From: an uncultured Actinomycetes bacterium
GTDB lineage: Bacteria; Actinomycetota; Thermoleophilia; RBG-16-64-13
Reading direction: 5' to 3'
DNA length: 64,000 bases
NCBI GenBank assembly: GCA_963809395.1
Contig: CAWEJM010000010.1
Span: forward strand, 117,776-181,775
Shown in pieces: positions 7,530 to 58,882 of the stretch. Each line of letters opens with the position of its first letter. Positions within the stretch are counted from its first letter, which is position 1. The notes below the pieces were generated by a model, which was not told the origin of the DNA, did no database searches, and saw nothing but the letters and a program-made list of their open reading frames with translations. The position numbers and the translations under genes are program-made.

Positions 7530-7602
7530 GGGGGTATAGCTCAGTTGGGAGAGCGCGACGCTGGCAGCGTTGAGGCCAGGGGTTCGAGTCCCCTTACCTC
7601 CA
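7530..7602 (+). tRNA. tRNA-Ala (anticodon GGC)
   Basis: Cloverleaf folded by hand: acceptor GGGGGTA/TACCTCC with G3:U70 Ala identity pair, D-arm GCTCAGTTGGGAGAGC, anticodon loop CTGGCAG, T-arm AGGGGTTCGAGTCCCCT; CCA not encoded. Confidence 0.85.
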
Positions 7603-9722: not shown

Positions 9723-10867
9723 GCCTCACCCGTCAGCCCGCCTATTGGCTCTTTCTTGTGTTCTTGGCCGGATGTTCCTTGATCGTGGGAGGGGAGCAGT
9801 TGTCGTATCTGGGCTCACAGCCCGGCGCTTGGCTGCTTTCCCTGGTGCTCCTGGCGGCAACGGCCATCCCTGCTGGGATCATCATCTACCGCTTGGATCA
9901 GTTCGAGCCCGAGCCTGCTTCTCTGATCGCCGTGGCCCTTCTGTGGGGCGGGATCGTGGCAGTGACGTTCGCCGCCATCACCAATTCGTACGCCTTGGGC
10001 TTTCTTCAGCACGTTCTTCCCGCGGCGACGGTCGACTCCTGGGGAGCTGCCATCGTGGCGCCGATCAATGAGGAGTTCTACAAGGGAGCGGGCCTGGTCA
10101 TCATCTATCTGATGGCCCGGACCGAGTTCGACGGGCTCATGGACGGGCTCGTCTACGGCGCCATGATCGGATTGGGTTTCCAGGTGGTCGAGAACGTGCA
10201 GTACTTCGTGCACGCGGCCTCGGAATCCGGAGCCGGCCAGTTGGGTCCTGTCGTGAGCATGTACTTCGTGCGGGTCGTTCTCGCGGGCTTGTATAGTCAC
10301 ACGTTGTTCAGCGGTCTGATGGGTTTCGGCTTCGCGTACGCGGTGACCCAGCGGGAGGCGTCGCGGCGCAGGCGGCTGAGCGTGGCGGCGTTGTTCGTCG
10401 CGTTGGCGTGGGCTGCGCACTTCGTGTGGAACTCTCCTTGGTTGGAGTCGCTCATGGGGCGGGGCGGCGGGTCGTTCATCCTGGTCTTCCTGGTCAAGGG
10501 GGTACCGTTCCTTGTCTTCTTGGCGATCCTGGCCGTCGTCGCGCGCCGGCGCGAAGGACAGGCGTTCGCCCGGCTTGTGGCCGCGGAGGTGGGAAGCGAC
10601 GTGCTGAACGAGGCGGAGTTCCGCATTCTGCAGAGCGGGCGCAGGCGAAGGGCCGCCCTCCGGCAGGTCAAGCGGAGCAGGGGCCGCGGCGCCAGGCGGC
10701 TGCTCAAACGGCTGCAACGGGAGCAGATGAACTTGGCTCTCTTCCACACCAAGGTGCGAGAGTCCGACCACCCGGCTCTCGAGGCTCAGCGCGACACGAT
10801 CAGGGCGCTCAAAGCGAGGCTGGTAGCGAGCGCGGGTTCTACAATCCCAACATCGTGGACAACGTGA
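9719..10867 (+). CDS. prsW: PrsW-family intramembrane glutamic metalloprotease
   Basis: 382-aa polytopic membrane ORF with PrsW signature motifs (INEEFYKGAG = EExxK; HFVWN); Arg-rich cytoplasmic C-terminal tail. Confidence 0.75.
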   Translation: MSLTRQPAYWLFLVFLAGCSLIVGGEQLSYLGSQPGAWLLSLVLLAATAIPAGIIIYRLDQFEPEPASLIAVALLWGGIVAVTFAAITNSYALGFLQHVLPAATVDSWGAAIVAPINEEFYKGAGLVIIYLMARTEFDGLMDGLVYGAMIGLGFQVVENVQYFVHAASESGAGQLGPVVSMYFVRVVLAGLYSHTLFSGLMGFGFAYAVTQREASRRRRLSVAALFVALAWAAHFVWNSPWLESLMGRGGGSFILVFLVKGVPFLVFLAILAVVARRREGQAFARLVAAEVGSDVLNEAEFRILQSGRRRRAALRQVKRSRGRGARRLLKRLQREQMNLALFHTKVRESDHPALEAQRDTIRALKARLVASAGSTIPTSWTT

Positions 10868-11730
10868 CCAGCTCGTAGCCAGCGGCGCGCAGCCGCTTGA
10901 TGATGGAGGGCAGCGCCTCGGCGGTGTGTTTGCCGGCCATGTGCATCAGCACGATGGCCCCATTGTGAGCGTTGCCCATCACCGTCTCCGTGATTTGGGC
11001 GGCGGTGCGGCCCCGCCAATCGTTGGTGTCGACATCCCACATGACCACGTACTTGAAGCCCTTCTCTGCGGCCACCTCGCACGTCTTCTGGTCGATGAAC
11101 CCGCCTGGAGGGCGGAAGAGCGCGACGGTGGGGGCTCCGGTCAGTTCCCGGTAGTGATCGGTGCCGTTCCCGATCTCGATGCGCAAACCACGCTTTGAGA
11201 GCTTCGGGCAATTGGCGTGGCTACGGGTGTGATCGCCCACTTCGAAGCCGCCGGCGGCGATCTCCTTGAGCCAGGCTTTGGCCCCAGGTCGACGTAGTGA
11301 CCGATGACGAACAGGGTCGCCGGCACTTTGTATTGTCTGAGCACGGCGAGCGTCTTGCGAAGCCTTCTCGCCCTGGTAGTTGTCGTCGAAGGTGAGGGCG
11401 ATCCACTTGCGGTCGGCGGGGCCGTGCCTGACGATCGGGGCGGCGGTCTGCGCAGCGACGTGGTCGTCGTGCTCGAGCTGAGCTGTCGACGTGGTCGACC
11501 ATGGCTTGTAGAGGTCACTCCGGCCTCTGTCGTGGTGGTCGTGGTCGACGTAAGGGTCGAGGAGGTCGACGGGAACCGCGCTGGCGGTGGTCGCGCCCGG
11601 CAGTCCGGTGGTGCTCGTGGAGTCCTCGGGCGAGGCGCATGAGGCGATGAGCACGACGGCGAGTCACGAGCCGCCGCTGCAACCGTACGCGCAACTCCCA
11701 GACCCAGGTGCCGTCGACGTCGGACCGTCT
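10839..11730 (-). CDS. polysaccharide deacetylase (NodB/CE4 family), probable lipoprotein, frameshifted
   Basis: NodB motifs (IALTFDDNY, LFRPPGG, VVMWDVDTNDW, LMHMAGKHTAEALP); middle of domain (KTLAVLRQYKVPATLFVIGHYV) lies in second frame (ORF 11141..11860), so at least two frameshifts; lipobox LIASC preceded in another frame by Tat-like RRRRHLGLGVARTVAAAA; 5' boundary uncertain. Confidence 0.7.
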
Positions 11731-11859: not shown

Positions 11860-14760
<2,901 letters not shown>

Positions 14761-14767
<7 letters not shown>

Positions 14768-16194
14768 CGGGGGGCGGACGGGATGACGATTGCCGTTACG
14801 GGGGGAAATCGCGTTGGAGAAGCGAGCGAGCCTATCTCATCGCCGTCGACAGCGGTGACGATGCCGGCTGGAGCGCGGAGGAGTCTCTGGGCGAGTTGTC
14901 GGCGCTGGTGGAGACGGCGGGGGCCGAGGTGGTGGGCATGGTCGCTCAGCACCGGGAATCGATCCACCCGATCTGGTATCTGGGCAAAGGCAAAGCCGAG
15001 GAACTGAAGGCGGCCAAGGGCGCTACCGGCTTCTCGCTCCTGGTGGCCGACGACGAGTTGTCGCCCAAGCAGCAGCGGTCGCTGGAGGAACTGCTGGACG
15101 TGAAGGTGCTCGACCGCAGCGGGGTGATCCTCGACATCTTCGCCCAGCGGGCGCAGACGCATGAGGGGCGCATCCAGGTGGAACTGGCCCAGCTCGAGTA
15201 CCAGCTTCCCCGGCTTACCAGGTTGTGGACCCACCTCTCGCGCACCGGAGGGGGCGGCATCGGCACCCGCGGCCCCGGCGAGACCCAGCTCGAGACCGAC
15301 CGCCGGGTCATCCGGGAGCGCATCAAGAAGACGAGGGAGCGCGTGGACGAGGTGCGCCGCCGCCGCGAGACCGCGGCGCGGGCGCGCGACCGCCGCCTCC
15401 TGCCAACCGTGGCGATCGTGGGCTACACCAACGCCGGCAAGTCGACCTTGCTCAACGCGCTGGTCGGCGAGGAAGCCGCGGTGGTCGAGGACAGGCTCTT
15501 CGCCACCCTCGACCCGACCACGCGCCGCGTGCGGCTGGGAGAGGGCCAGACCGTGATCGTGAGCGACACGGTGGGCTTCATCCACAAACTGCCGCACCAA
15601 CTGGTGGAGGCCTTCCAGGCCACCCTCGAGGAGGTCACCCGAGCCGACGCCCTGATCGAGGTGGTGGACCTTGCCGACCGGCACGCGGCCGAGCACCGGC
15701 GCACCGTGCAGACGGTCTTGGACGAGTTGGGGGCGGGTCACAAGCCGCGAGTGGTGGTGCTGAACAAGGCCGACCGGGCCGAAGTCGTTCCGGGCGTGCA
15801 CCCGGTCCACAGCGGGATCGTTCGCCGCGACGATCAGCACGTGCTGAGAGTGTCGGCGCTCACCGGCGCGGGCATCGACGAGATGCGCGCCCTGGTGGCC
15901 ACGGTCTTGGCCGAACTATGGCTGGAAGTGGACCTTCCGGTGCCCTATTCGGCGGGCGAACTACTGGCCCGGGTCAGGGAGCGCGGTACCGTGGTCTTCG
16001 AGTACCGCGACGAGGACGTGAGGATCAAGGGCCGGGTGCCGCCCTCGATGGCCGGGGAGCTACAGAGGGTCGGTCTGGGTTGGGAGCGCGCCCTGCGGGC
16101 GCGCGAACGCGGGAACAGGGTGGGCGACGAAGCGACCGATGAGGTGGCCGGCGAGACGGTGGACGCGGCGGACGGGGCGGAGGCCGACCTCTAG
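14761..16194 (+). CDS. hflX: GTPase HflX
   Basis: HflX N-domain, G-domain GYTNAGKST...DTVGF...NKAD, C-terminal domain; GTG start overlapping uvrA stop. Confidence 0.85.
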
Positions 16195-17250
16195 AAGTAC
16201 TCGTGCGCTCGCAGGATCGCGGCCGCGACCAGCGCCGCGCCTTGCTCCAGGTCGCGCAAGGACAGCACCTCCACCGGCGAGTGGATGTAGCGCGTGGGCA
16301 CGCTGATGACGCTGCAGGGGATGCCGGTCTTGGTGATGTGGATCGCCGTGGCGTCGGTGTTGCCGCCGTCGCCGACCTCCAACTGATAGGGGATCGAGGC
16401 CTTTTCGGCCGACTCCCTGAGCCAGCGGACCACGGGACGGGGAGCGATGACGCCCCGGCCGGCCGCATCGAGGATGGTTATGGTGGGGCCCTTGCCCGCG
16501 ACGACATGGGACTCGTTCCTGGTCACCCCCGGATGGTCGCCCGGTATGGTGACGTCCGTGGCCAAGGCGACGTCTGGGTTGAGGCCGTAGGCGCTGGTGC
16601 GGGCTCCCTTCAGCCCCACTTCCTCTTGCACGGTGCCCACGGCCTGGACGGTGGCCCGCACCCTCTTGCCCTTCAGCCGCTGCAGCGCCGCCACCATCAT
16701 CACCACGACCGGCGCGGTTGTCGAGAGCCTTGCCGGTGACGAAGTCGTTGCCCATCCGGCGCAGCTCGCGATCGATGGTGATGGGCGAACCGATCTCCAC
16801 TCCCATCTCGGCGGCGTTGGCCGCGCTGGTCGCACCGCAGTCGACGAACATGTCCTTCAGCTTGACCATCTTCTTGCGTTCCTCGGCGTCCATCAGATGG
16901 GGCGGCCGCGAACCGACGACGCCGGGGATGCGCTTGCCGTCCAGCGTGTGGATCATCACCCGCTGGCTGAGAATGGTCTGGTCGAACCAACCGCCTATGG
17001 ACACCACCCGCAGGTAGCCGTCGTCATCGATGTGGGAGACGATCAGGCCGATCTCGTCCATGTGGGCTGCCACCATGACCACGGGGCCGTCGCCGGAACG
17101 GATCCCGATGACATTGCCCATCTTGTCGGTGCGGACCTCGTCGACCAGCGGCTCCATTTCGCGCCGCAGGAGGGCGGCCACATCTTCCTCGTAACCGGAG
17201 AGACCGTGAGCATCGGAGAACATGGTGAGGAGGGTGGCCATGTCTTTCAT
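16191..17250 (-). CDS. M42 family glutamyl aminopeptidase (FrvX/PepA-like), frameshifted
   Basis: N-terminal half in ORF 16060..17280 (MKDMATLLTMFSDAHGLSGYE...HMDEIGLIVSHID), C-terminal half in ORF 16191..16835 (metal-binding GDHPG region); frameshift near 16740; stop shares CTAG with hflX stop. Confidence 0.8.
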
Positions 17251-17289
17251 GCCGGGTCTCCTATTCGGTGTGGCGCTCATCGGTCGCGC

Positions 17290-19023
17290 TCAGTCGGCTG
17301 CCAGGGCGCTGAGACGGTCGAGCTCTTCCGGCCGGCTTTCCAGGATGATCGAGGCTCCCGCTTCGACCGCGGGGACGATCCGGTCGACGAAATACTCCGC
17401 CATCAGCAGCTTGCGCACGTCGCTCTGGCCCTGCCGCATAAGGAGATAGGCGCAGGCGAGATCTGTGCCCATCTCCACCAGCCTGGGGGCGTGATGGTCG
17501 CGGAAGCGGGAGTCGTCCAGTGCCAGGACACGGGCCACCGCGGCCTCGTAGCGCCCGCGCCCGCCCTTGACCCGGGCGAGAAGCTCCGGGGTGCGGGAGA
17601 GATCCCAGGTCTCGTAGTCGTCGAAGCGCTCGGAGAGCGTTCCCGCCAGGATCCCGCGGCGGGCGGCGACCACCTGCAGCTGAGTGGTCCCTTCGTAGAT
17701 GTTGGTGATGCGGGCATCGCGCATGTGGCGCTCCACGGCGAAGTCGCGCATGTAGCCGGAGCCGCCGTGCACCTGGAGCGAGTCATAGGCGATGCGGTTG
17801 GCGGCCTCGGTGCAACGAGCCTTGGCCAAAGGCGTGAAGAGGCCGGCATAGTTCGCGTACTTCTTGGCCTCCGTTCGGAGGACCTTGATCTCGTCCGGGG
17901 ACAGCCCCGTCTCCGCGGCCTCTTCGAGCCGGTGCTCCAGACCCTCTTTCAGGTCGACCAGCACCGCGGTGTCGTAGAGGAGCGCGCGCGCCGCTTCCAA
18001 CGATACCTTCATGTCGGCCAGGAGAGTGGCGACCGCGGTGATCTTGCGAATGGGGACCCCGAACTGGATCCTTTCGCCCGAGTATTTGTAGGCTGCACGA
18101 TAGGCGGCCTCGGCGATGCCTTGGGCTTGGGCGGCGATGGCCAGCCGGGCTCCGTTCATGAGACTCATCACGTAGGTGGTCAGGCCCCGGCGACGCTCGC
18201 CGATGAGGAGGGCGGGCGCGTCGGTGAACTGCAACTCGCAGGTGGGCGAGCCGTGGATGCCCAGCTTGTCTTCGAGGCGGCGGATCTTCATGTGCTCGTC
18301 GCGCTCGTAGAGGAACAACGAAAGTCCGCGGCCGTCGGTGGTGCCTTCCTCGCTGCGGGCCAGGACCAGCGCGATCTGCCCGCACCCGTTGGTGATGAAG
18401 CGTTTGACCCCGTTCAGATACCAGAGCCCGTCGTCGCCCTGGTGGGCCTTGAGCTGGATGTTCTGAAGGTCGGAGCCGGCCTCGGCTTCGGTGAGGGCCA
18501 TCGACCCGGTGACCTCTCCGCTGGCGAAGCGGGGTAGATAGGCCTGCTTGATCTCCTCGGAGGCGAACTTGTTGACCGTCTCTGCGATGTCCTGGAGGCC
18601 GAAGATGTTCATGAGCGAAGCGTCCGCCCGAGAGACGATCTCGGTGATCATGGCCAAGATGGTGACCGGGCAAGTTGAGCCCGCCGAAACGACGAGGCAG
18701 GGTGATGCCCATGAGATCGGCCTGCCGGAGCCGTGTCGAGCGCCTCTGAGATGCCCGGGGCGTAGCACACCTCGCCGTCGACCAAGGTGCTGCCGGCGCG
18801 GTCGACGTCCTCGGCCCGAGGGGCGACGAACTCGCCCGGCGATGTCACCCACCAGTTCCAGGGTGCGTCGATAGTTGTCGAGAGCGTCGGGCAGGTCGCG
18901 CGGCGCCCAGGTGTAGGCCGAGGTCTCGGCAAAGCCCTTCTCGCGCAAATCGACCGCCCACTCCAGGTCGAGACGCTCGAGGTAGGCCACCAGATCGGCG
19001 TTGTCGGTGAAGAAGTTGCTCAT
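17290..19023 (-). CDS. acyl-CoA dehydrogenase (large ~575-aa type), frameshifted near N-terminus
   Basis: ACAD middle and C-terminal domains intact (VKRFITNG, QVHGGSGYMRDFAVERHMRDARITNIYEGT); N-terminal domain split over ORFs 17783..18712 (MGITLPRRFGGLNLP) and 18648..18932; ATG at 19023 overlaps etfA stop (ATGA). Confidence 0.8.
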   Translation of the reverse strand: MSNFFTDNADLVAYLERLDLEWAVDLREKGFAETSAYTWAPRDLPDALDNYRRTLELVGDIAGRVRRPSGRGRRPRRQHLGRRRGVLRPGHLRGARHGSGRPISWASPCLVVSAGSTCPVTILAMITEIVSRADASLMNIFGLQDIAETVNKFASEEIKQAYLPRFASGEVTGSMALTEAEAGSDLQNIQLKAHQGDDGLWYLNGVKRFITNGCGQIALVLARSEEGTTDGRGLSLFLYERDEHMKIRRLEDKLGIHGSPTCELQFTDAPALLIGERRRGLTTYVMSLMNGARLAIAAQAQGIAEAAYRAAYKYSGERIQFGVPIRKITAVATLLADMKVSLEAARALLYDTAVLVDLKEGLEHRLEEAAETGLSPDEIKVLRTEAKKYANYAGLFTPLAKARCTEAANRIAYDSLQVHGGSGYMRDFAVERHMRDARITNIYEGTTQLQVVAARRGILAGTLSERFDDYETWDLSRTPELLARVKGGRGRYEAAVARVLALDDSRFRDHHAPRLVEMGTDLACAYLLMRQGQSDVRKLLMAEYFVDRIVPAVEAGASIILESRPEELDRLSALAAD

Positions 19024-20087
19024 ACTTTGCTCCGGTACGCGCGGATGATCCGGGGGATCACATCGTGGAGGTCGCCCACGATGCCGTAGTGGGCCACGGA
19101 GAAGATGGGGGCCTGCGGGTCGGTGTCGATGGCCAGGATGCGGGCCGACTCGTCCATGCCCGCTCGGTGCTGCACCGATCCGGATATGCCGGCGGCGATG
19201 TAGAGCTTGGGCCGCACCGTGGTGCCCGTCTGCCCGATCTGGTGCTCGTGGCCGATCCAGCCGGCGTCGACCGCCGCCCGGGTGGCGCCTACCACTCCGC
19301 CGAGCGTGTCGGCCAGCTCGCGGATAAGGGCGAAACCCTCCTTGGAGCCCACGCCGGCGCCGCCGGCGACGATGATGGCGGCTCCCTTGAGGTCGACCCT
19401 CTTCTCTTCTAGGCTCCGGCTGATCACCTGCACGCAGAGGTCCTCGGCGGGCAGGTCGACCGGCACTGGGATCACCTGACCGCGGCGCCCTGGTTCGGGA
19501 TCGGGCAGCCGGAAGACACCCTCGCGTACGGTGGCCATCTGCGGCCGATGGTCGGGCGAGATGATGGTGGCGATGATGTTGCCCCCAAAAGCGGGCCGGA
19601 TCTGATAGAGGAGCTGCTCGTAGTCGCGCTCCTTGGTGTGATGCGGACCGATGCGCAGGTCGGTGCAATCCGCGGTAAGACCGGTGCGGAGCAAGGACGC
19701 CACCCGGGGAGCGAGATCACGGCCCGTTGTGGTCGCGCCGTACAGGACGATGTCGGGTTGGTGCTGCTTGATGAGCTGGGAGATGACACGAGCGTACGGC
19801 TGGGTCAGGTAGTCGCGCAACGCCGGGTCGTCTGCCACGTACACGCGATCGGCTCCGTGACGCTATCAGCCCCTCGGCCAGACCGGAGACCTCGGAACCG
19901 ATGAGGACCGCCCCGACCGGGGTCTGCCAGCTCGGCTGCCAACTCCCGGGCTCGGCCCGAGCAGTTCCAGGCTGACCTCGGCCGCGCGCCCGTCGTTCAC
20001 CTGGACGAAGACCCAGACTTCGCGCGGGCCGGCGCCAATGCCGCCCGCCGCTGCGGCCCTATCGTCCGCCGCCCGGTGCTCCGGCAC
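19020..20087 (-). CDS. etfA: electron transfer flavoprotein alpha subunit
   Basis: C-terminal FAD-binding domain intact (IVAGGAGVGSKEGF...LYIAAGISGSVQHRAGM); N-terminal domain (VWVFVQVNDGRAAEVSLELLG) in ORF 19866..20333 after frameshift near 19850-19900; start tentative. Confidence 0.75.
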
Positions 20088-20101
20088 GCGGTGTCGCCCC
20101 G

Positions 20102-20997
20102 CTAGCCAAGGATGTGCTCCTCGATCAACTCGTGTACCAACGCCGCGACGCCTTCGTCGGTGGGCTCGACCATGCGGGCTTCGGCGGGCGATAGTTGGAC
20201 GCTGGTGATCTTCTTGACCCGGGTGGGCGACCCGCGGAGGCCGACCTCGTCGCGCCCGGCCCCGACGGCCTCCATGTCCCAGAGTACGATGCGGGCCCGG
20301 CATACCGGCCGGCCCTGGCGATCGATCATGCACACCTCGGCCTCCTCGTTCTCCGGGTCCAGATAGCTGTCATCGTAGGGGCGGAGCAACTCGGCGTCGG
20401 CATGTTTGTAGGTCATGAGCAGTCGCGCGCTGGGCGGCCGGGGATCGTTGGTTTCGCCCGTGATGGTGAGCAGCGCCGGCAGCGGGGCGCGCAGCGTCTC
20501 GAAGCCGCCTTCCACAGAGCGGGTGGCGGTGATGGAGCCGTCGTCGATGGCGTCGATGCGGCTCACGCAGGTGATCTGCGGCAGTCCCAGCTTCTCAGCA
20601 AGCTGGGGGCCCACCTGGGCGGTGTCCCCGTCGATCGCCTGGCGGCCACAGAGGACCAGGTCGTAGTGGCCGATCTTTCGGACGGCCAAGGAGAGGGCGT
20701 AGCTGGTGGCCAGGGTGTCGGCACCGGCGAAGGGCCCGTCGCAAAGCAGGATCACCTCGTCGGCTCCCCGATAGAGAGACTCGCGCAGCACCTGGGCTGC
20801 CGCGGGCGGTCCCATGCTGATGACGGTGACCCGGCCCCCGTGGCTCGCGAAGCGAGGGCCTCTTCCAAGGCGTTGAGATCCTCGGGGTTGAAGATGGCGG
20901 GAGGGCGGCTCGGTTGACGGTGCCGTCGTCGTTCATGGCCTGACCGGTGATGTTCTGGGTATCGGGGACCTGCTTGGCCAGCACCACGATTCGTAGA
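20102..20997 (-). CDS. etfB: electron transfer flavoprotein beta subunit
   Basis: C-terminal 237 aa intact (AGADTLATSYALS...QVGPQLAEKLGLPQ); N-terminus MSLRIVVLAKQVPDTQNITGQ (GTG start near 20997) joined through frameshift near 20900. Confidence 0.75.
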
Positions 20998-21250
20998 CTC
21001 ACGCGCTGCTCCCGCTGGAAGATCGAAGTACGCACGCCGCCAGCCGACTCAGCCGTAGCGTCAGCGGAAGTCGCCCGGCGGAGGCGGAGGGCCTCCTCCA
21101 ACGCGTTCAGATCCTCAGGGTTGAAGATGGCGGGAAGAGCGGCCCGGTTGACGGTGCCGTCGTCGTTCATGGCCTGACCGGTGACATTCTGGGTGTCGGG
21201 CACCTGCTTGGCCAGCACCACGATTCTTAGGCTCACATGCTCCCCCGCTG
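20857..21250. repeat. tandem direct duplication (2 x ~238 bp, ~90% identical) of etfB start plus upstream region
   Basis: cctcggggttgaagatggcggg...ctgcttggccagcaccacgattcgtagactcac (20870-21005) recurs as cctcagggttgaagatggcggg...ctgcttggccagcaccacgattcttaggctcac (21108-21243); both copies encode MSLRIVVLAKQVPDTQN(V/I)TGQAMNDDGTVNRAALP. Confidence 0.8.
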
Positions 21251-21414
21251 GAAGTGAAGATACGCATCGGCACGACCTCTGGCGACGCCGGGCCGCAAGG
21301 GCAAAAAGTATAACATGGGCTCTCTCGGGGCCAGGGCACGCCCGCGTGGGGTACACTTGAGCGGTAGGCGCGACTCTCTTTCGCGGACAGGGCGGAGCGG
21401 CCCAGGCGGCACCG

Positions 21415-23315
21415 ATGAGCGGCAGCGACGAGCTCAGACATCACATCAAGCATGCCCCCGATCTTCCCGGCGTGTACCTCTATCGGGACGCGTCCGGCGA
21501 CGTGCTGTACGTGGGCAAGGCGCTCTCTCTGCGTAAACGGCTGGCCAACTACCTTCCCGCCCTCGAAGGAGGCGATGCCGGCCGAGTGCCGGCCAAAGTG
21601 GCCGAGATGGTGAGCCGGTCGGCTGCCGTCGAATGGATCGTCACCACCAACGAGGTGGAGGCGCTCATCCTGGAGCACAACCTCATCAAGCAGCATAGGC
21701 CCCCGTTCAACATCCGTCTGCGCGACGACAAGTCCTATCCGTACATCATGATCACCGCGGAGGACGAGTTCCCCCGGGTGATGTTCACCCGCCAGGCGCA
21801 CCGGCGCGGGAACCTCTACTTCGGTCCGTTCTCCAGCGCCGCCAAGGTGCGCGAGACGCTGGACGTCCTCGGCCGGGTGTTCCCGGTGCGGGCCTGCCGG
21901 GGCCGGCAGCCGGGCAGGCGGAACGGCTCTCCCTGCCTGCAGTTCCATATCGACCGGTGCCCCGGTCCCTGTCTGGGGACGGTGGATGTCGCTGACTACG
22001 GGGCCGTCGTCGGCCAGGTGGTGGACTTTCTGAGCGGGCGCGAGACTCGGGTGGTCGCTCGCTTGGAGCGGTCGATGCAGGAGGCCGCGGAGAGACAGGA
22101 TTTTGAGAGCGCCGCCGTGTTCCGTGACCGTCTGGAGGCCCTTTCCCATGTGTTGGAGCGGCAACGGATCGAGTCGAGCTCGCTGGGGTCGGCGGATGTG
22201 ACCGGTATGGCGGTGGATGGCTGGGGGGCGAACGTGCAGGTGTTCATCACCCGAGACGGGAAGCTGGCCGACCGGCGGAGTTTCACGCTGGTGAACGTCG
22301 AAGGGGCGGGGGAGCAGGAGATCTTCGAGCGGTTCGTCTCCGAGTACTACGCGTCTTCGCCGACGGTGCCGGCGGAGTTGATCGTGCCGGGAGCGGTGGT
22401 CGACACCGGCAGCCTGGCCGCGTTCCTGGAGAAGCTGCGGGGGACGAAGGTCGACGTCAGACAGGCGGAACGGGGAGACAAGCGCCGGCTTCAGGAACTG
22501 GCGGACCGCAACGCGGCCCTTGCCCTGGCGCACGAGAGGCTGCGGGAGGAACGGACCCGCGAACGGCGGTACGGAGCGCTGACGGCTCTGGAAGAGCGCC
22601 CTGGGTCTGGAAAGCGTGCCCATGCGGATCGAAGGCTTCGACATCTCCAATCTGGGAGCGGAGAATATCGTGGCTTCCATGGTGGTGTTCGAGGGGGGAG
22701 TGCCGAAGAAGAGCGACTACCGCAAGTTCGCCATCCGCTCCACCGAAGGCCAGGACGACGTGGGCGCCATGCGCGAGGCGCTGGTGCGCCGTTTCACCCG
22801 GGACGAGGGCGCATCGCCACGGCGCTGGACGAGCGGGGCGGGCTGGACAGGCCCTACGACCGTTCTTTCGAGGCCGTGCCGGACCTGGTGGTGGTCGACG
22901 GGGGCAAGGGGCAGTTGGGAGGCGCGCTGGACGCGTTGCGGGAGGCAGGTGTGGACGGCGGCGGTCACCGTGATCTCGCTGGCCAAGCGGGAGGAGGAGG
23001 TCTTCGTCCCCTGGTCGCCCGGCCCTCTCGACCTTGCCCCCGACGATGCCGGGCTTGCTGCTTCTGCAGAGGGTGCGCGATGAAGCCCACCGTTTTGCGC
23101 TAGGCTTCCACCGAAGCAAGAGGGCCGGCCAGACGACGGTGTCGCTGCTCGACCAGCTTCCGGGCATCGGGGAAAAGCGGAAGCGGGCCATCGTGCAGCA
23201 CTTCGGCTCCCCGGAGCGGTTCCTGCAGGCCACCAGGGAGGAAGTCGAGGCCGTGCCCGGGCTGCCGGGCAAAGTGGCAAGGGAGATATACGCGCATGTC
23301 CACAAGACAGGTTGA
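21415..23315 (+). CDS. uvrC: excinuclease ABC subunit C
   Basis: GIY-YIG domain (GVYLYRDASGDVLYVGKA), UvrBC-binding and RNase H-like endonuclease domains (ORF 22616..23083), C-terminal (HhH)2 (ORF 23034..23315); at least three frameshifts. Confidence 0.85.
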
Positions 23316-23451
23316 CAGCTCGACCGGGCGCGGCGTCGGCGCCCGGGGCCCGGGGTCGGCCGACTGGGGGGAGCCCCGGTCGCGATCGGTCCCTACCGCA
23401 CGCCCTGGGGAACGGGGACTGTTGTGGTGAGCGAGGGACGCCTCGTCGGGC

Positions 23452-23870
23452 GTGGAGCTGCCGGGCGCGACGGCATCTGTGCTCCTGAGAGCGCCAGGCC
23501 GCTCGCGGAGCGCATCGTCGGCGCCGGCCGACCGGGCCGCGCTTGCTCGCTGGGTGGAGGAGTTGGAGGCATACTTTCGCGGCGAACGTCTGGCGTGGAG
23601 GCCGGAGGAGATCGCACTCGACGGTCTGGGATTTGGTCCGTTCGAGCGGGCCGTGTACACGACCCTGCTCTCCATCCCGGCGGCTGTCACCGTCAGCTAC
23701 GGCGTGCTGGCCGAGATGGCCGGCTATCCTCGGGCCGCTCGGGCGGTGGGCAACGCCATGGCGGCGAATCCTATCCCCGTCGTGGTCCCCTGCCACCGGG
23801 TGATCCGTGCCGACGGCAGTCTGGGCACTACGGCGACGACCCGGCGTGGAAAGAGCGGCTGCTGACTCAC
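23452..23870 (+). CDS. ogt: methylated-DNA--protein-cysteine methyltransferase
   Basis: MGMT DNA-binding domain with active-site PCHRV motif (SYGVLAEMAGYPRAARAVGNAMAANPIPVVVPCHRVIRADGSLG); C-terminal tail shifted into another frame near 23825. Confidence 0.7.
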
Positions 23871-23932
23871 GAGCGGACGCACGCTCCGGCACGCGCCGAT
23901 AGCGCGGCAGGCGCCGAAAGGCGGAGGGTACA

Positions 23933-24823
23933 GTGACCGGCCCACGTCAACTGCACATGACGGTGATCACCGGTCTGTCCGGCGCAGGCAAGTCGGAAGC
24001 GGTAGCTACCTTCGAAGACATGGGCTATTTCTGCATCGACAACCTGCCGCCGCAGATGCTCCCTCGGGTGGTGGAGTTGTTCGCGTTGGAGGGGAGCCGC
24101 GTCGACAGGGTGGCCCTGGTCTTCGACGTGCGCGGAGGCACGTATTTCGAGCAACTGGACCAGGCCCTCGAGTACCTGCGGGAGTCGAGCGTACCCTTCC
24201 GCCTGCTGTACCTGGAGGCGTCCGACGAGGCGCTGATGGCCCGCTACCAATCGACCAGACGGCCGCACCCGCTTTCGAAGTCGAGCCTGGTGGAGGGTAT
24301 CGACCGGGAGCGGCGCCTTCTTTCTCGGCTGCGCGCGCAGGCCGACGTGGTGATAGACACGACCGGCGTCTCTCCCCGGCAGCTCCGCCGGCGGCTCGAG
24401 GAGACCCTGCTGGCCGATCAGCTGAGCGACCAGTTGTTTCTCAGCCTTCTGTCCTTCGGCTACAAGTTCGGGCTGCCGGACGAAGCCGACATGGTTCTCG
24501 ACTCCCGTTTCCTGCCCAATCCCCACTGGGTGCCCGACCTGCGGCCCTTCACCGGATCGGACCCGGCGGTGAAGCAGTACGTGCTGGGGCGGGAAGAGGC
24601 CGGCGCCTTCCTGGACCAGGTGGTGACGCTGGTGCGCTTCCTGGCCCCGCGTTTCGTAGCCGAGCAGAAGCCCAGGCTCGTCGTGGCGGTCGGATGCACC
24701 GGGGGGCGCCATCGCTCGGTGGTGCTCGTCGAGGAGTTGGCTGCCAGGCTTCACGACGACGCTCGCCGTGGTTACGAGCGTGTCGCATCGGGATGTAGAT
24801 CGGACGGTGTGAGGGTGCCGTCG
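23933..24823 (+). CDS. rapZ: RNase adapter protein RapZ (YvcJ/YhbJ family)
   Basis: P-loop GLSGAGKS, conserved RHRS motif; true C-terminus ...VSHRDVDRTV* is in +1 frame ending TGA about 24821-24823; read-through into whiA in ORF track is artifact. Confidence 0.8.
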
Positions 24824-25808
24824 GGGTTCACACGGGCCTTCCGGGAGGAGCTGGCTCGCGCGGAGGAGAAGCAGGGTTGCTGCCGGATGGCGGCGTCCGC
24901 GGGTCTGATGCACACGGCGGGCACTTTCATTATCCGGGGCGGAGCAAGCGACGCGGAGCGATACGAGATCCGCTTGGCCACCACGGTGCAGGGGGCGGCG
25001 AAGATGGTCTACTCGCAGTTCAAGGCCTATGGAGCCGAGGGCGATCTACTGACCCGGCGGGAGCCTCGCTTCGGCCGTCGCCTGGTGTACGAAGTGCACG
25101 TGAAGGGCACCCCACCGGCCCTCCAGATCCTCAACGAGATGGGCGCGCTCAGCGACAGCTTCCAGCTCGAGCCCGGGATCAGCAAACGGTTGGTCAAGAA
25201 GAGTTGCTGCCGGAGCGCCTTCATCCGCGGCTGTCTAATCGGGGCGGGCTCGGCGAACTCGCCGCAAAGAGAGGCCCATCTTGAAATCATCACCTCCCAC
25301 CAGACCTTCGCCTGCCGATCTGACGCGGCTGCTCAGCGACATGGACTTCCATCCCGGCCAGAGGTTCCGCAGGGGGAGCTACGTGGTGTATCTCAAAGGA
25401 AGGGATGAAGTGGCCGGCCTGCTCGCCCTGGCGGGAGCGCACCAGTCGGCGCTGGTGGTGGAGGAACAGGCGGTGGTGAAAGAGGTGCGGTCGCGGGCCA
25501 ACCGTCTGGCCAATTGCGACTCGGCGAACCTGCGCCGCACCAGCGTGGCGGCCTCGCGGCAACTGGAGGCCATCTCCGTTCTCGAGCGGACCGGGCGCCT
25601 GGCGACGCTGCCTCCCGCGCTGCGGGAGATGGCCGATCTGCGTCTTCGCTACCCGTATATGAATCTGTCGGAGCTGGCGGAAGCCGAAGGGGAGGGGGTC
25701 TCCCGCTCGGCCGTAAACCACCGGTTGAGGCGGCTGGTGCAGGCCGCGGAACTGGCGGGCGGCGCGGCCGGAGGCCGAGGTGCTTGTGATAAAATGCGCG
25801 TTCGCTGA
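24817..25808 (+). CDS. whiA: DNA-binding sporulation/cell-division regulator WhiA
   Basis: Probable GTG start overlapping rapZ stop (gtgtga); N-terminal LAGLIDADG-like domains (FTRAFREELARAEEKQGCCRMAA...), C-terminal HTH (ORF 25281..25808: LRLRYPYMNLSELAE...SRSAVNHRLRRL); one frameshift near 25280. Confidence 0.8.
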
Positions 25809-25842
25809 GAGACGAGAGAGCGACGCAAGGGAGCACGTTCGA

Positions 25843-28047
<2,205 letters not shown>

Positions 28048-28057
<10 letters not shown>

Positions 28058-28840
28058 CGGGGTTCGCCGTCGGCGGAGGCCGCGTGCCCCTCATGGTCGG
28101 CAACTGGAAGATGTACAAGACGAGCAGCGAAGGCGCGGCGTTCGTCAGACAGCTCGCCGAGCTGCTGGGAGCGTTGGACGATCGCGACGTCGTGGTGGCT
28201 CCTCCCTTCACCGGCCTCTACGAGGCGGTGAAGGCGGCGGTGGGCACCTGCGTCTCGGTGTCGTCGCAGGACGTGTTCTGGGAGGCGGAAGGCGCCTACA
28301 CGGGCGAGGTGGCGCCGGGCATGCTCGCCGATCTGGGGGTGAAGGCCGCCATCATCGGCCACTCGGAGCGCCGGCAGTACTTCGGTGAGACGGACGAAAC
28401 GGTGAGCAAGAAGGTGCGGGCCGTCTTGGACGAGGGCCTGCTGTCCATCATGTGCGTCGGAGAGACCGAAGCTGAGCGCGACGCCGGTCTGACCGAGAAA
28501 GTCCTTTCCACGCAGGTGCCCGCGGGCGTGGCCTCGCGTGCGACCGCGACGAGGCTGGATCGGTGGCCATCGCCTACGAACCCATCTGGGCCATAGGCAC
28601 GGGCAGGACGGCCACTCCCGAGATCGCGCAAGAGGCGGTCGCCTTCGTCCGGGCCCAGGTGGCGGCCGCCCTGGGCGCGGAGGCGGCTCGGGCGGTGCGC
28701 ATACTGTACGGGGGCAGCGTCAGGCCGGACAACATCGACGAACTGATGGCCCAGCCCGATATCGATGGCGTTCTGGTGGGAGGGGCGAGTCTCGAGCTCG
28801 ATTCTTTCGCCCGCATCGTCCGTTCAAGGAGCGATAGGCC
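28048..28840 (+). CDS. tpiA: triosephosphate isomerase
   Basis: [34 protein letters not shown] motifs; frameshift near 28555; ORF-track read-through into gpmI is artifact. Confidence 0.85.
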
Positions 28841-28856
28841 CCATGGCCCAGGGGCT

Positions 28857-30411
28857 ATGCCTACTGCGCCGGGCAACGGTCGCCGGCGCGCAGCCCTCGT
28901 CATCCTTGACGGGTGGGGCTGCGCGCCGCCCGGCCCGGGCAATGCCATCTCGTTGGCCGACACGCCGGTCTGGGACGCCCTGTGGGCGCGGTATCCACAC
29001 GTCCTTCTGGAGGCCAGCGGCGAAGCCGTCGGCCTACCTCCCGGCGTCATGGGCAACTCTGAGGTCGGTCACCTCACTCTGGGGTCGGGTCGGATCATCT
29101 ACCAGGATCTTTCCCGCATCAACCGGGCCATCGCCGACGGTTCCTTCTTCGAAAACCAGGTGCTTGGGGCCGTGATGGACGGAGTCGTCGCCCGAGGCCG
29201 GTCTCTTCACCTCATGGGGTCTGCTGTCCGACGCAGGAGTGCACTCTTCTCTCGACCACCTGAAAGCGCTCGTGACGATGGCGCACCGGCGCGGAGTGCC
29301 CCGGGTGTTCGTCCACGCCTTCACCGACGGCCGGGACACGTCGCCCACGGCAGGCGAGGCCTTCATGCAGGACCTGGAGGCGTTCCTCGAGGCGGAGGGA
29401 CTTGGTGTCGTAGCTACGGTTTCCGGTCGTTTCTACGCCATGGATCGTGACCGGCGGTGGGAGCGGGTGAAGCGCGCCTATGACGCCTTGGTGCGCGGCC
29501 AGGGGCTCGCGGCGGCAAGCGCCATGGCCGCCATCCAGGAGTCATACGCTCGGGGCGAGACAGATGAGTTCGTCCAGCCCACGATCGTGTGCGCCGACGC
29601 GGGTTCGCGGGTCTGCGCCGGTGATGGGGTCATCTTCTTCAACTTCCGTCCGGACCGGGCGCGGGAGCTGGCAGCGGCCCTTACTCAGGCCGACTTCGCC
29701 GGGTTCGACCGTGGCGGTCCCGCGCCGTCGGTCGACTTCGTGGGAATGACCGAATATGACCCGAGTCTCCGCCTGGCGGTCGCCTTTCCCAAAGAGGAGC
29801 CTCGTCACGTGCTGGCCGAGGTTATCAGCGCCGCCGGCCTCACCCAGCTCCACATCGCCGAGACCGAGAAGTACGCGCACGTGACCTTCTTCTTCAACGG
29901 AGGGCGGGAAGAGCCGTTTCCGGGAGAGGTGCGCAAGCTGGTGCCCTCCGCCAGGGACGTGGCGACGTACGATCTCAAGCCGGCCATGAGCGCCTACGAA
30001 GTGGTCGATTGCCTCGAGGAGACAATGGCCGAGAACCCGGTCGACTTCGTGGTTCTCAACTTCGCCAATCCCGACATGGTCGGGCACACCGGCGACATCC
30101 CGGCGACGGTGGAGGCCATCGAGCACGTCGACCGCTGTCTGGGGAGGGTGTTGAAGGTCTTTGGTGGGGTGGGAGCGAAAGTCATGGTGACGGCCGATCA
30201 CGGAAACGCCGAATCCATGCTGGAAGCAGATGGCAGCATCAATACGTCTCATAGTACCGACCGGGTTCCCCTGGTCCTTCTTGAGGAGGGCGCCGTGTTG
30301 CGCGAGGGAGCCGGTCTCTCCGATGTGGCCCCGACCTTGTTGTGTTTTCTAGGGTTGGACAGACCCTCGGAGATGACGGGGCGGCCTCTCTGTGAGGGCG
30401 AACAAGAGTAG
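28857..30411 (+). CDS. gpmI: 2,3-bisphosphoglycerate-independent phosphoglycerate mutase
   Basis: ATG after RBS aaggag; iPGM motifs ([34 protein letters not shown]); frameshift near 29230. Confidence 0.85.
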
Positions 30412-36743: not shown

Positions 36744-37106
36744 GCAGCCCGGGTAGCCGCAGGGGCTCGCCTCGAGCGGGTTCCTGAGGAAAGTCCGGAC
36801 ACCACAGAGCAGGGTGCTGGATAACGTCCAGCGGGGGAAACCCCAGGGAAAGCGCCACAGAAATTACACAGCACGCCGGCTCGGCCGGTTGCGAAGGTGA
36901 AATGGTGCGGTAAGAGCGCACCGGCGCCGTGGTGACACGGCGGCCAGGCAAGCCCCACCCGGTGCAAGGCCGAATAGGGAGGCGTTTGAGGGCTGCTCGC
37001 CCGAAGCCTTCGGGTTGGCCGCACGAGCCGTCCGGCAACGGGCGGCCTTAGATAGATGGCTACCCCAGACAGAATCCGGCTTACAGGGCTGCTACCGCGG
37101 GGGCTC
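36744..37106 (+). ncRNA. rnpB: RNase P RNA, bacterial type A
   Basis: Universally conserved elements read directly: GAGGAAAGTCCGGAC (P4 5' strand), AGGGTGCTGGATAACGTCCAGCGGGGGAAACC, GGTGAAATGGTGCGGTAAGAGCGCACC, CAAGCCCCACCCGGTGCAAGGC, ACAGAATCCGGCTTAC (P4 3' strand); ends approximate. Confidence 0.85.
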
Positions 37107-57882: not shown

Positions 57883-57971
<89 letters not shown>

Positions 57972-58807: not shown

Positions 58808-58882
58808 TGGCTCCTCGGGCAGGACTCGAACCTGCAACACCCTGATTAACAGTCAGGTACTCTACCATTGAGCTACCGAGGA
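58808..58882 (-). tRNA. tRNA-Asn (anticodon GTT)
   Basis: Reverse complement TCCTCGGTAGCTCAATGGTAGAGTACCTGACTGTTAATCAGG...GCAGGTTCGAGTCCTGCCCGAGGAGCCA: acceptor TCCTCGG/CCGAGGA, anticodon loop CTGTTAA, CCA encoded. Confidence 0.85.

Follow-up and report, generated by a model that had tools for sequence, protein, structure and literature searches.

Doubled 5' end of etfB in an error-rich contig of an uncultured Thermoleophilia-like actinobacterial lineage, most likely not a real feature

The 64-kb stretch of DNA analysed here (the window) belongs to an uncultured Thermoleophilia-like actinobacterial lineage. On its minus strand, a direct-repeat search and BLAST both revealed that the 5' end of etfB occurs twice, head to tail. 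The doubled start is most likely not a real feature of the organism; judging from the sequence, and with a probability that we put at roughly 0.6, it would be a heterotype false duplication that arose in the assembly, which is rich in errors. This term denotes two alleles of one locus that stand next to each other in an assembled sequence (Ko et al. 2022, PMC9516828). The evidence for this reading comes from the anatomy of the repeat, from the pattern of differences between its two copies, from the single-copy state of the locus in relatives, and from the load of sequence errors in the window.

Anatomy of the repeat and its operon

An earlier note on this DNA had described a tandem direct repeat of the etfB start and first ~50 codons, and such a repeat is indeed present: the segment 20899-21012 is 89% identical to 21133-21246, located 234 nt away, while 20854-20902 is 92% identical to 21087-21135, at a distance of 233 nt. 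The two spacings differ because the proximal copy is 1 nt short, owing to a deletion. The period therefore measures 234 and 233 nt, and not the ~238 bp given earlier; both copies open with GTG, and not with ATG (21236 in the distal and 21002 in the proximal copy, both on the minus strand). In a BLAST alignment, the copies matched over ~182 nt at 88.5% identity, the longest run identical between them being 40 nt. This is the sole direct repeat of at least 40 nt within the window, and it was not reported by Tandem Repeats Finder. Both copies encode the N-terminus VSLRIVVLAKQVPDTQN(V/I)TGQAMNDDGTVNRAALPAIFNPEDLNALEEAL, and in both the GTG is preceded by a Shine-Dalgarno-like GGGAG. A single ORF (20595..21356) leads in frame from the distal copy across a spacer of 75 nt to the proximal one, and thus the read-through proposed in the earlier note was borne out. 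The individual features of the locus, together with the frameshifted genes discussed below, are collected in the table.

Table. Features of the etfB locus and frameshifted genes of the window (coordinates are window positions)
Feature	Position	Strand	Remarks
Promoter-like motif GCCCATGTTATACTTT (extended -10 type, TGnTATACT)	21304..21320	minus	79 nt 5' of the distal start; single
Distal, native-type etfB leader, Shine-Dalgarno-like GGGGGAG	21237..21303	minus	End-to-end alignment with L001 (82%), L086, L002 and L004
Distal etfB fragment, GTG and codons 1-53 (...EEALRLR)	21078..21236	minus	Frame intact
'Spacer', a second, diverged etfB leader of the proximal unit, Shine-Dalgarno-like GGGAG	21003..21077	minus	MAFFT
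Proximal etfB copy, GTG and codons 1-50	20854..21002	minus	1-nt deletion at ~20897-20902
Lesion at junction J2	20840..20853	minus	Alignment: GCCCTCGCTTCGCGAGCCAC in place of GCCCTCCGCCTCCGCGAGAGCCAC in five relatives
Rest of etfB, codons ~55-301	20102..20853	minus	Frame intact; 91% aa identity to L002 EtfB, 88.9% nt identity to L001
etfA and acyl-CoA dehydrogenase gene, 3' of etfB	17290..20109	minus	Synteny and tblastn; operon order as in relatives
uvrC, divergent from etfB	21415..23312	plus	At least two frameshifts of its own (frames 1, 2, 3); synteny
UvrA gene, frameshifted	11860-14755		Window region 11860-30400
M42 peptidase gene, frameshifted	16194-17250		Same region
WhiA gene, frameshifted	24851-25742		Same region
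GAPDH gene, frameshifted	25843-26838		Same region
TIM gene, frameshifted	28078-28823		Same region
iPGM gene, frameshifted	28875-30402		Same region

The distal copy, for which tblastn gave 96% identity over 50 aa, tracks the sequence of the relatives up to ...GAGGCCCTCCGCCTCCGC (codon 53) and then breaks off; in the alignment with the relatives, this break comes after GCCCTCCGCCTCCGC. Its etfB homology ends at 21078, which marks the junction J1 (21077/21078), with the sequence …CTCCGCCTCCGC on one side and CGGGCGACTTCCGC… on the other. The spacer that follows was aligned by MAFFT to the leaders of the relatives, from just downstream of a conserved TATAC up to the start codon, with clear similarity confined to the last ~30 nt; when the 85-nt leader segment 21003-21087 was used alone as query, BLAST returned no match. 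The whole 234-nt period is thus a single repeated unit, made up of a leader and codons 1-53.

In six loci of relatives (L001, L002/L005, L003, L004, L086), the motif GCCCATGTTATACTTT precedes etfB by 78-89 nt, a conserved position that implies a leader of ~70 nt; its sequence has the appearance of an extended -10 promoter element. In the window, the surroundings of etfB contain the motif once, upstream of the distal copy, i.e., outside the repeated unit, and hence no promoter has been duplicated. A 10-mer similar to it, ATGTTATACT, occurs once more in the window, at 3081-3072 on the minus strand. Consensus scans of 20700-21500 for sigma-70 promoters and terminators returned nothing, and an Rfam scan of the same interval returned no RNA family, and hence neither leader contains a riboswitch.

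The protein itself is, by its sequence, an ordinary ETF beta subunit. The gene (20102-21002, minus strand) corresponds to 300 aa with an N-terminal KQVPDT motif; after repair of the frame, EtfB matched PF01012 (E=3.4e-44; 151 bits, the cut-off being 26.7), and it is 90-91% identical to annotated EtfB proteins of MAGs. With the EtfB/FixA-type proteins encoded in etfB-etfA-acyl-CoA dehydrogenase operons it shares PF01012, the operon and the divergent uvrC neighbour, and only its sequence errors and the doubling of its 5' end set it apart from them. The usual EtfB, at ~260 aa, is shorter than the 300 aa found here; in its length and its KQVPDT motif, the protein may be akin to the ETFs of the electron-bifurcating Bcd/FixAB type, an assignment that would agree with the etfBA-acad operon.

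Divergence of the copies and comparison with relatives

Over 150 coding nt, the distal and proximal copies differ by 12 substitutions, of which 11 are synonymous and one exchanges I and V, at a site that is also polymorphic among relatives. The resulting values are pS 0.31 and pN 0.009, with P=1.8e-6 for at most one non-synonymous change under neutrality. Differences so nearly confined to synonymous positions indicate that the two copies evolved in different genomes, each as a functional start of etfB. Random sequencing errors ignore codon position, as would the decay of a truncated copy in place, and both were therefore rejected as the source of the differences. The distance of 12/150 between the copies falls inside the range seen between lineages (11-23/150), and the leaders of the two units are much more diverged than their coding parts. 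Thus, to judge from the substitutions, the copies are two alleles, and either the cell or the assembler has placed the second of them beside the other. Each copy has its own allele-specific sequence (the 12 substitutions and a different leader), as is the case in heterotype false duplication; they are neither identical nor diverged without regard to codons, as a recent in-place duplication would have left them. A template and variable repeat pair of the DGR type was also considered and rejected: in such a pair, only adenines of one copy vary and the variable repeat is at the 3' end of a target gene, whereas the etfB copies show C/T, A/C, G/C and G/A differences that run both ways, occupy third codon positions and lie at the 5' end of the gene.

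These features bear directly on the proposal in the earlier note that the duplication is recent and affects expression of etfBA-acad through promoter dosage or phase variation. Adjacent direct repeats with a 40-nt identical run would indeed permit deletion of one unit by recombination. However, the copies are 8-12% diverged (8% in the coding comparison, with nearly all differences synonymous), the promoter-like motif is single, the region is without a simple-sequence tract, collapse of the repeat leaves the frame broken, the frameshift is one of many in the window, and no relative has the doubling. A recent duplication that serves as such a switch is therefore barely credible, and we do not uphold this part of the earlier proposal.

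The relatives compared were L001, L002 (NCBI MAG GCA_043801935.1), L003 and L004, and later L085-L087 and L165-L167. In L001-L004, for which the flanks are annotated, uvrC is followed by a divergent etfB-etfA-acyl-CoA dehydrogenase-M42 peptidase series, with one etfB each and roughly 80-230 nt between uvrC and etfB. Each of these four loci aligns to the window as two pieces with overlapping query ranges, the uvrC-side piece ending at 21078 and the etfBA-side piece beginning at 21020-21032; the window therefore holds extra sequence that is absent from L001-L004. A second etfB 5' copy was found in none of 162 related loci (0/162), drawn from two collections and look-ups; this count refers to the relatives' assemblies, which are all of other species. 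The 27-mer that spans the junction was likewise absent from both large contig collections, genomic and metagenomic, and exact-protein queries with the 237-aa EtfB ORF and with PrsW gave no hit.

The same survey bears on an old in-place duplication under selection, in which the 78-residue extension of EtfB, repeating its first 53 residues, or else a regulatory translated upstream ORF, would have been retained. This would explain why the 234-nt period is in frame within one ORF, and why 49 of 50 residues have been kept between the copies. Nonetheless, a duplication with an age of pS 0.31 would predate the split of the L001/L002-like lineages and should be present in relatives, yet it is found at none of the 162 loci, and on this ground an in-place duplication was rejected. 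Moreover, divergence is far greater in the leader halves of the units than in their coding halves, which is expected of orthologues and not of a linker within a protein, and there is no sign that repeating the first strand and helix of an ETF fold is useful. Overall, this origin is very improbable.

With respect to affinity, the best BLAST match of the distal unit and of both flanks was L001, while that of the proximal unit was L165/L166/L003, at ~90%. At the only four coding sites in the repeat that are fixed between two groups of relatives, both copies carry the same state, and derivation of the proximal unit from an identified foreign group was dropped for this reason. The identity ranking of L001-L004 is the same on both sides of the joint, and thus offers no support either way for a chimeric contig.

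Error load of the window and lesions in the proximal copy

A tblastn search of the window with L002 proteins revealed at least 10 frameshifts in housekeeping genes. The frame changes number one each in iPGM, TIM, WhiA, the M42 peptidase and UvrA, two in EtfB, three in GAPDH and at least two in UvrC, and the halves of the frameshifted genes are 84-96% identical to their orthologues. An organism in which all of these genes were broken would not be viable, and pseudogenes are not so well conserved; the frameshifts are therefore sequence errors. Their rate is ~0.5-0.65 per kb of coding DNA. In comparison with L002, the 1-nt indels comprise 39 insertions and 11 deletions, mostly outside homopolymers. 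GC3 phase tracking over the whole window divided it into 73 phase segments, in which gene boundaries were indistinguishable from frameshifts, and it was not used for this reason.

Two further places in the window deserve mention in this context. A 491-aa ORF at 23933-25408 (plus strand) joins RapZ to the N-terminal part of WhiA; in the relatives, the RapZ and WhiA genes are separate and adjacent, with no yvcK-like gene between them, and the fusion is probably one more frameshift error. At 15791-15810, within a short repeat of the GTGGACGGC type near the end of a gene for an HflX-like GTPase, the window is 26 nt shorter than L002, which may be either a real difference in length or an error. Elsewhere, a 271-aa polysaccharide deacetylase ORF (10839-11654, minus strand; PF01522, E=1.6e-16) sits in a segment of ~1 kb that extends from uvrA to the gene of a PrsW protease; it is absent from L001, L002 and L004, which have only about 80-120 nt at that position. 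The window also contains a bacterial class A RNase P RNA (36744-37096, plus strand; 284 bits) and three tRNA genes (7530-7602, plus strand; 57885-57969 and 58811-58882, both minus strand), and there is no rRNA operon in its 64 kb.

The proximal copy of etfB contains two lesions. One is the 1-nt deletion (~20897-20902) that is absent from the distal copy, which confirms the frameshift near 20900 that the earlier note had placed in the proximal copy only. The other is a loss of 4 nt at 20843-20853, recognized by comparison with five relatives, which creates a second frameshift exactly at the repeat boundary; along the proximal copy, the etfB frame accordingly runs through -3, then -2, then -1. 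The earlier note had overlooked this second lesion, as well as the identity of the spacer as a diverged leader and the frameshifts throughout the window. It had suggested that replacing the proximal copy by the distal one might restore the etfB frame; when one period (20854-21087) was deleted in silico, an ORF of only 135 aa was left, because of the 4 nt missing at 20843-20853. Of its two alternatives, recent duplication and mis-assembly, the latter is thus the better supported, although not in the form of a simple copy swap.

It is to be noted that the frameshifts in the proximal copy are part of the window-wide error pattern, and not a property of the repeat. At a background rate of ~0.6 per kb, a pair of frameshifts within 160 nt has P ~0.005, and thus the repeat region is locally worse than the rest of the window; both lesions are also deletions, whereas insertions dominate the background. 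A simple tandem duplication creates a single new joint, whereas an inserted block creates two, and the lesion at J2 therefore favours an inserted block. A recent tandem duplication would have one novel joint only, and its second copy would run on smoothly into the sequence downstream; here, the proximal copy instead ends in a loss of 4 nt.

Origin of the doubled start

The sequence of events that we favour would be as follows. The organism would have one etfB with one promoter and one leader, as do all the relatives, and two co-occurring populations would differ slightly in their alleles of the leader and of the first ~53 codons. The assembly is probably long-read and derived from a metagenome, or else from a mixed culture; its assembler or polisher would have set both alleles head to tail instead of collapsing them, so that a 234-nt block (21087-20854) came to be inserted between two joints of poor quality, J1 (21077/21078) and J2 (20843-20853). 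The frameshifts in the proximal copy would then be consensus errors, like those in housekeeping genes across the window. The sequence shows the anatomy, the allelic character of both copies, the uniqueness of the doubling and the error load; we infer from these that the joining was done by software rather than by the cell.

Several observations agree with an artefact of this kind: the window is rich in errors, with at least 10 frame changes in conserved genes; the copies are allelic (11 synonymous differences and one conservative); none of the 162 relatives is doubled, including those with identical synteny; the repeat has a second lesion at its far end; neither collection contains the junction 27-mer; and the mechanism has been documented for assemblies of heterozygous material (PMC9516828). 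On the other hand, 234 nt is far short of the overlaps on which long-read assemblers usually depend, the joint contains no Ns, the period is divisible by 3 with the distal copy in frame (a chance of 1 in 3), and the flanks and both copies group with the same set of lineages (for the copies, at four diagnostic coding sites). The etfB copies resemble published cases in being adjacent allelic variants that are absent from the assemblies of relatives and accompanied by many other errors. However, the published false duplications are mostly kilobase-scale, come from diploid vertebrates, and often have gaps between the copies (PMC9516828), whereas the etfB block is 234 nt long, gapless and prokaryotic, probably from the assembly of a mixed population.

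The main competing explanation is a real and neutral insertion, in which the leader and 5' part of etfB from a related lineage were acquired by homology-facilitated illegitimate recombination, a process known from naturally competent bacteria and from E. coli conjugation (PMC3240628). The homologous crossover would lie inside etfB and the illegitimate joint would be J1, after resident codon 53; the full-length gene would have its own ribosome-binding site and be served by the single upstream promoter through the 234-nt remnant, and the frameshifts would again be sequencing errors. By this scheme, the resident leader and codons 1-53 should come first, then the leader and 5' etfB part of foreign origin, and last the remainder of the gene; this is the order observed, and the scheme would also predict allele differences that are synonymous only and restricted to one lineage; besides the described mechanism (PMC3240628), the Shine-Dalgarno-like GGGAG before both GTGs is compatible with it. 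The product predicted for this process, in which a resident segment is followed by an illegitimate joint and then by homologous foreign DNA that passes over into the gene of the recipient, matches the order at the locus, but an extra lesion at the far boundary of the repeat would not be expected. It is this J2 lesion that the insertion leaves unexplained, since a homologous crossover should leave no scar and could be located anywhere downstream. Furthermore, no donor lineage was found, the best match of the proximal unit being only 90%, and single bases of the assembly are demonstrably not to be relied upon. A real neutral insertion is accordingly doubtful, if still the foremost rival to the assembly artefact; its specific version, in which a 234-nt fragment of leader and 5' etfB was integrated from a related lineage by one-sided homologous and illegitimate recombination, is on these sequence features unlikely, a little more so than the insertion in general.

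For the interpretation of this window, the error load, roughly one frameshift per 1.5-2 kb of coding DNA, means that any apparent pseudogene, fusion, N-terminal extension or small duplication in it calls for read-level support before being given a biological meaning. Should the duplication be real, it would be a modest case in which uncultured lineages related to each other have recombined, and it would not evidently affect the expression of etfBA-acad. If the 234-nt fragment was truly integrated, the locus would represent a natural footprint of DNA uptake between lineages that are about 90% identical, which has left an in-frame upstream ORF of 78 codons before a bifurcating-type etfBA-acad operon.
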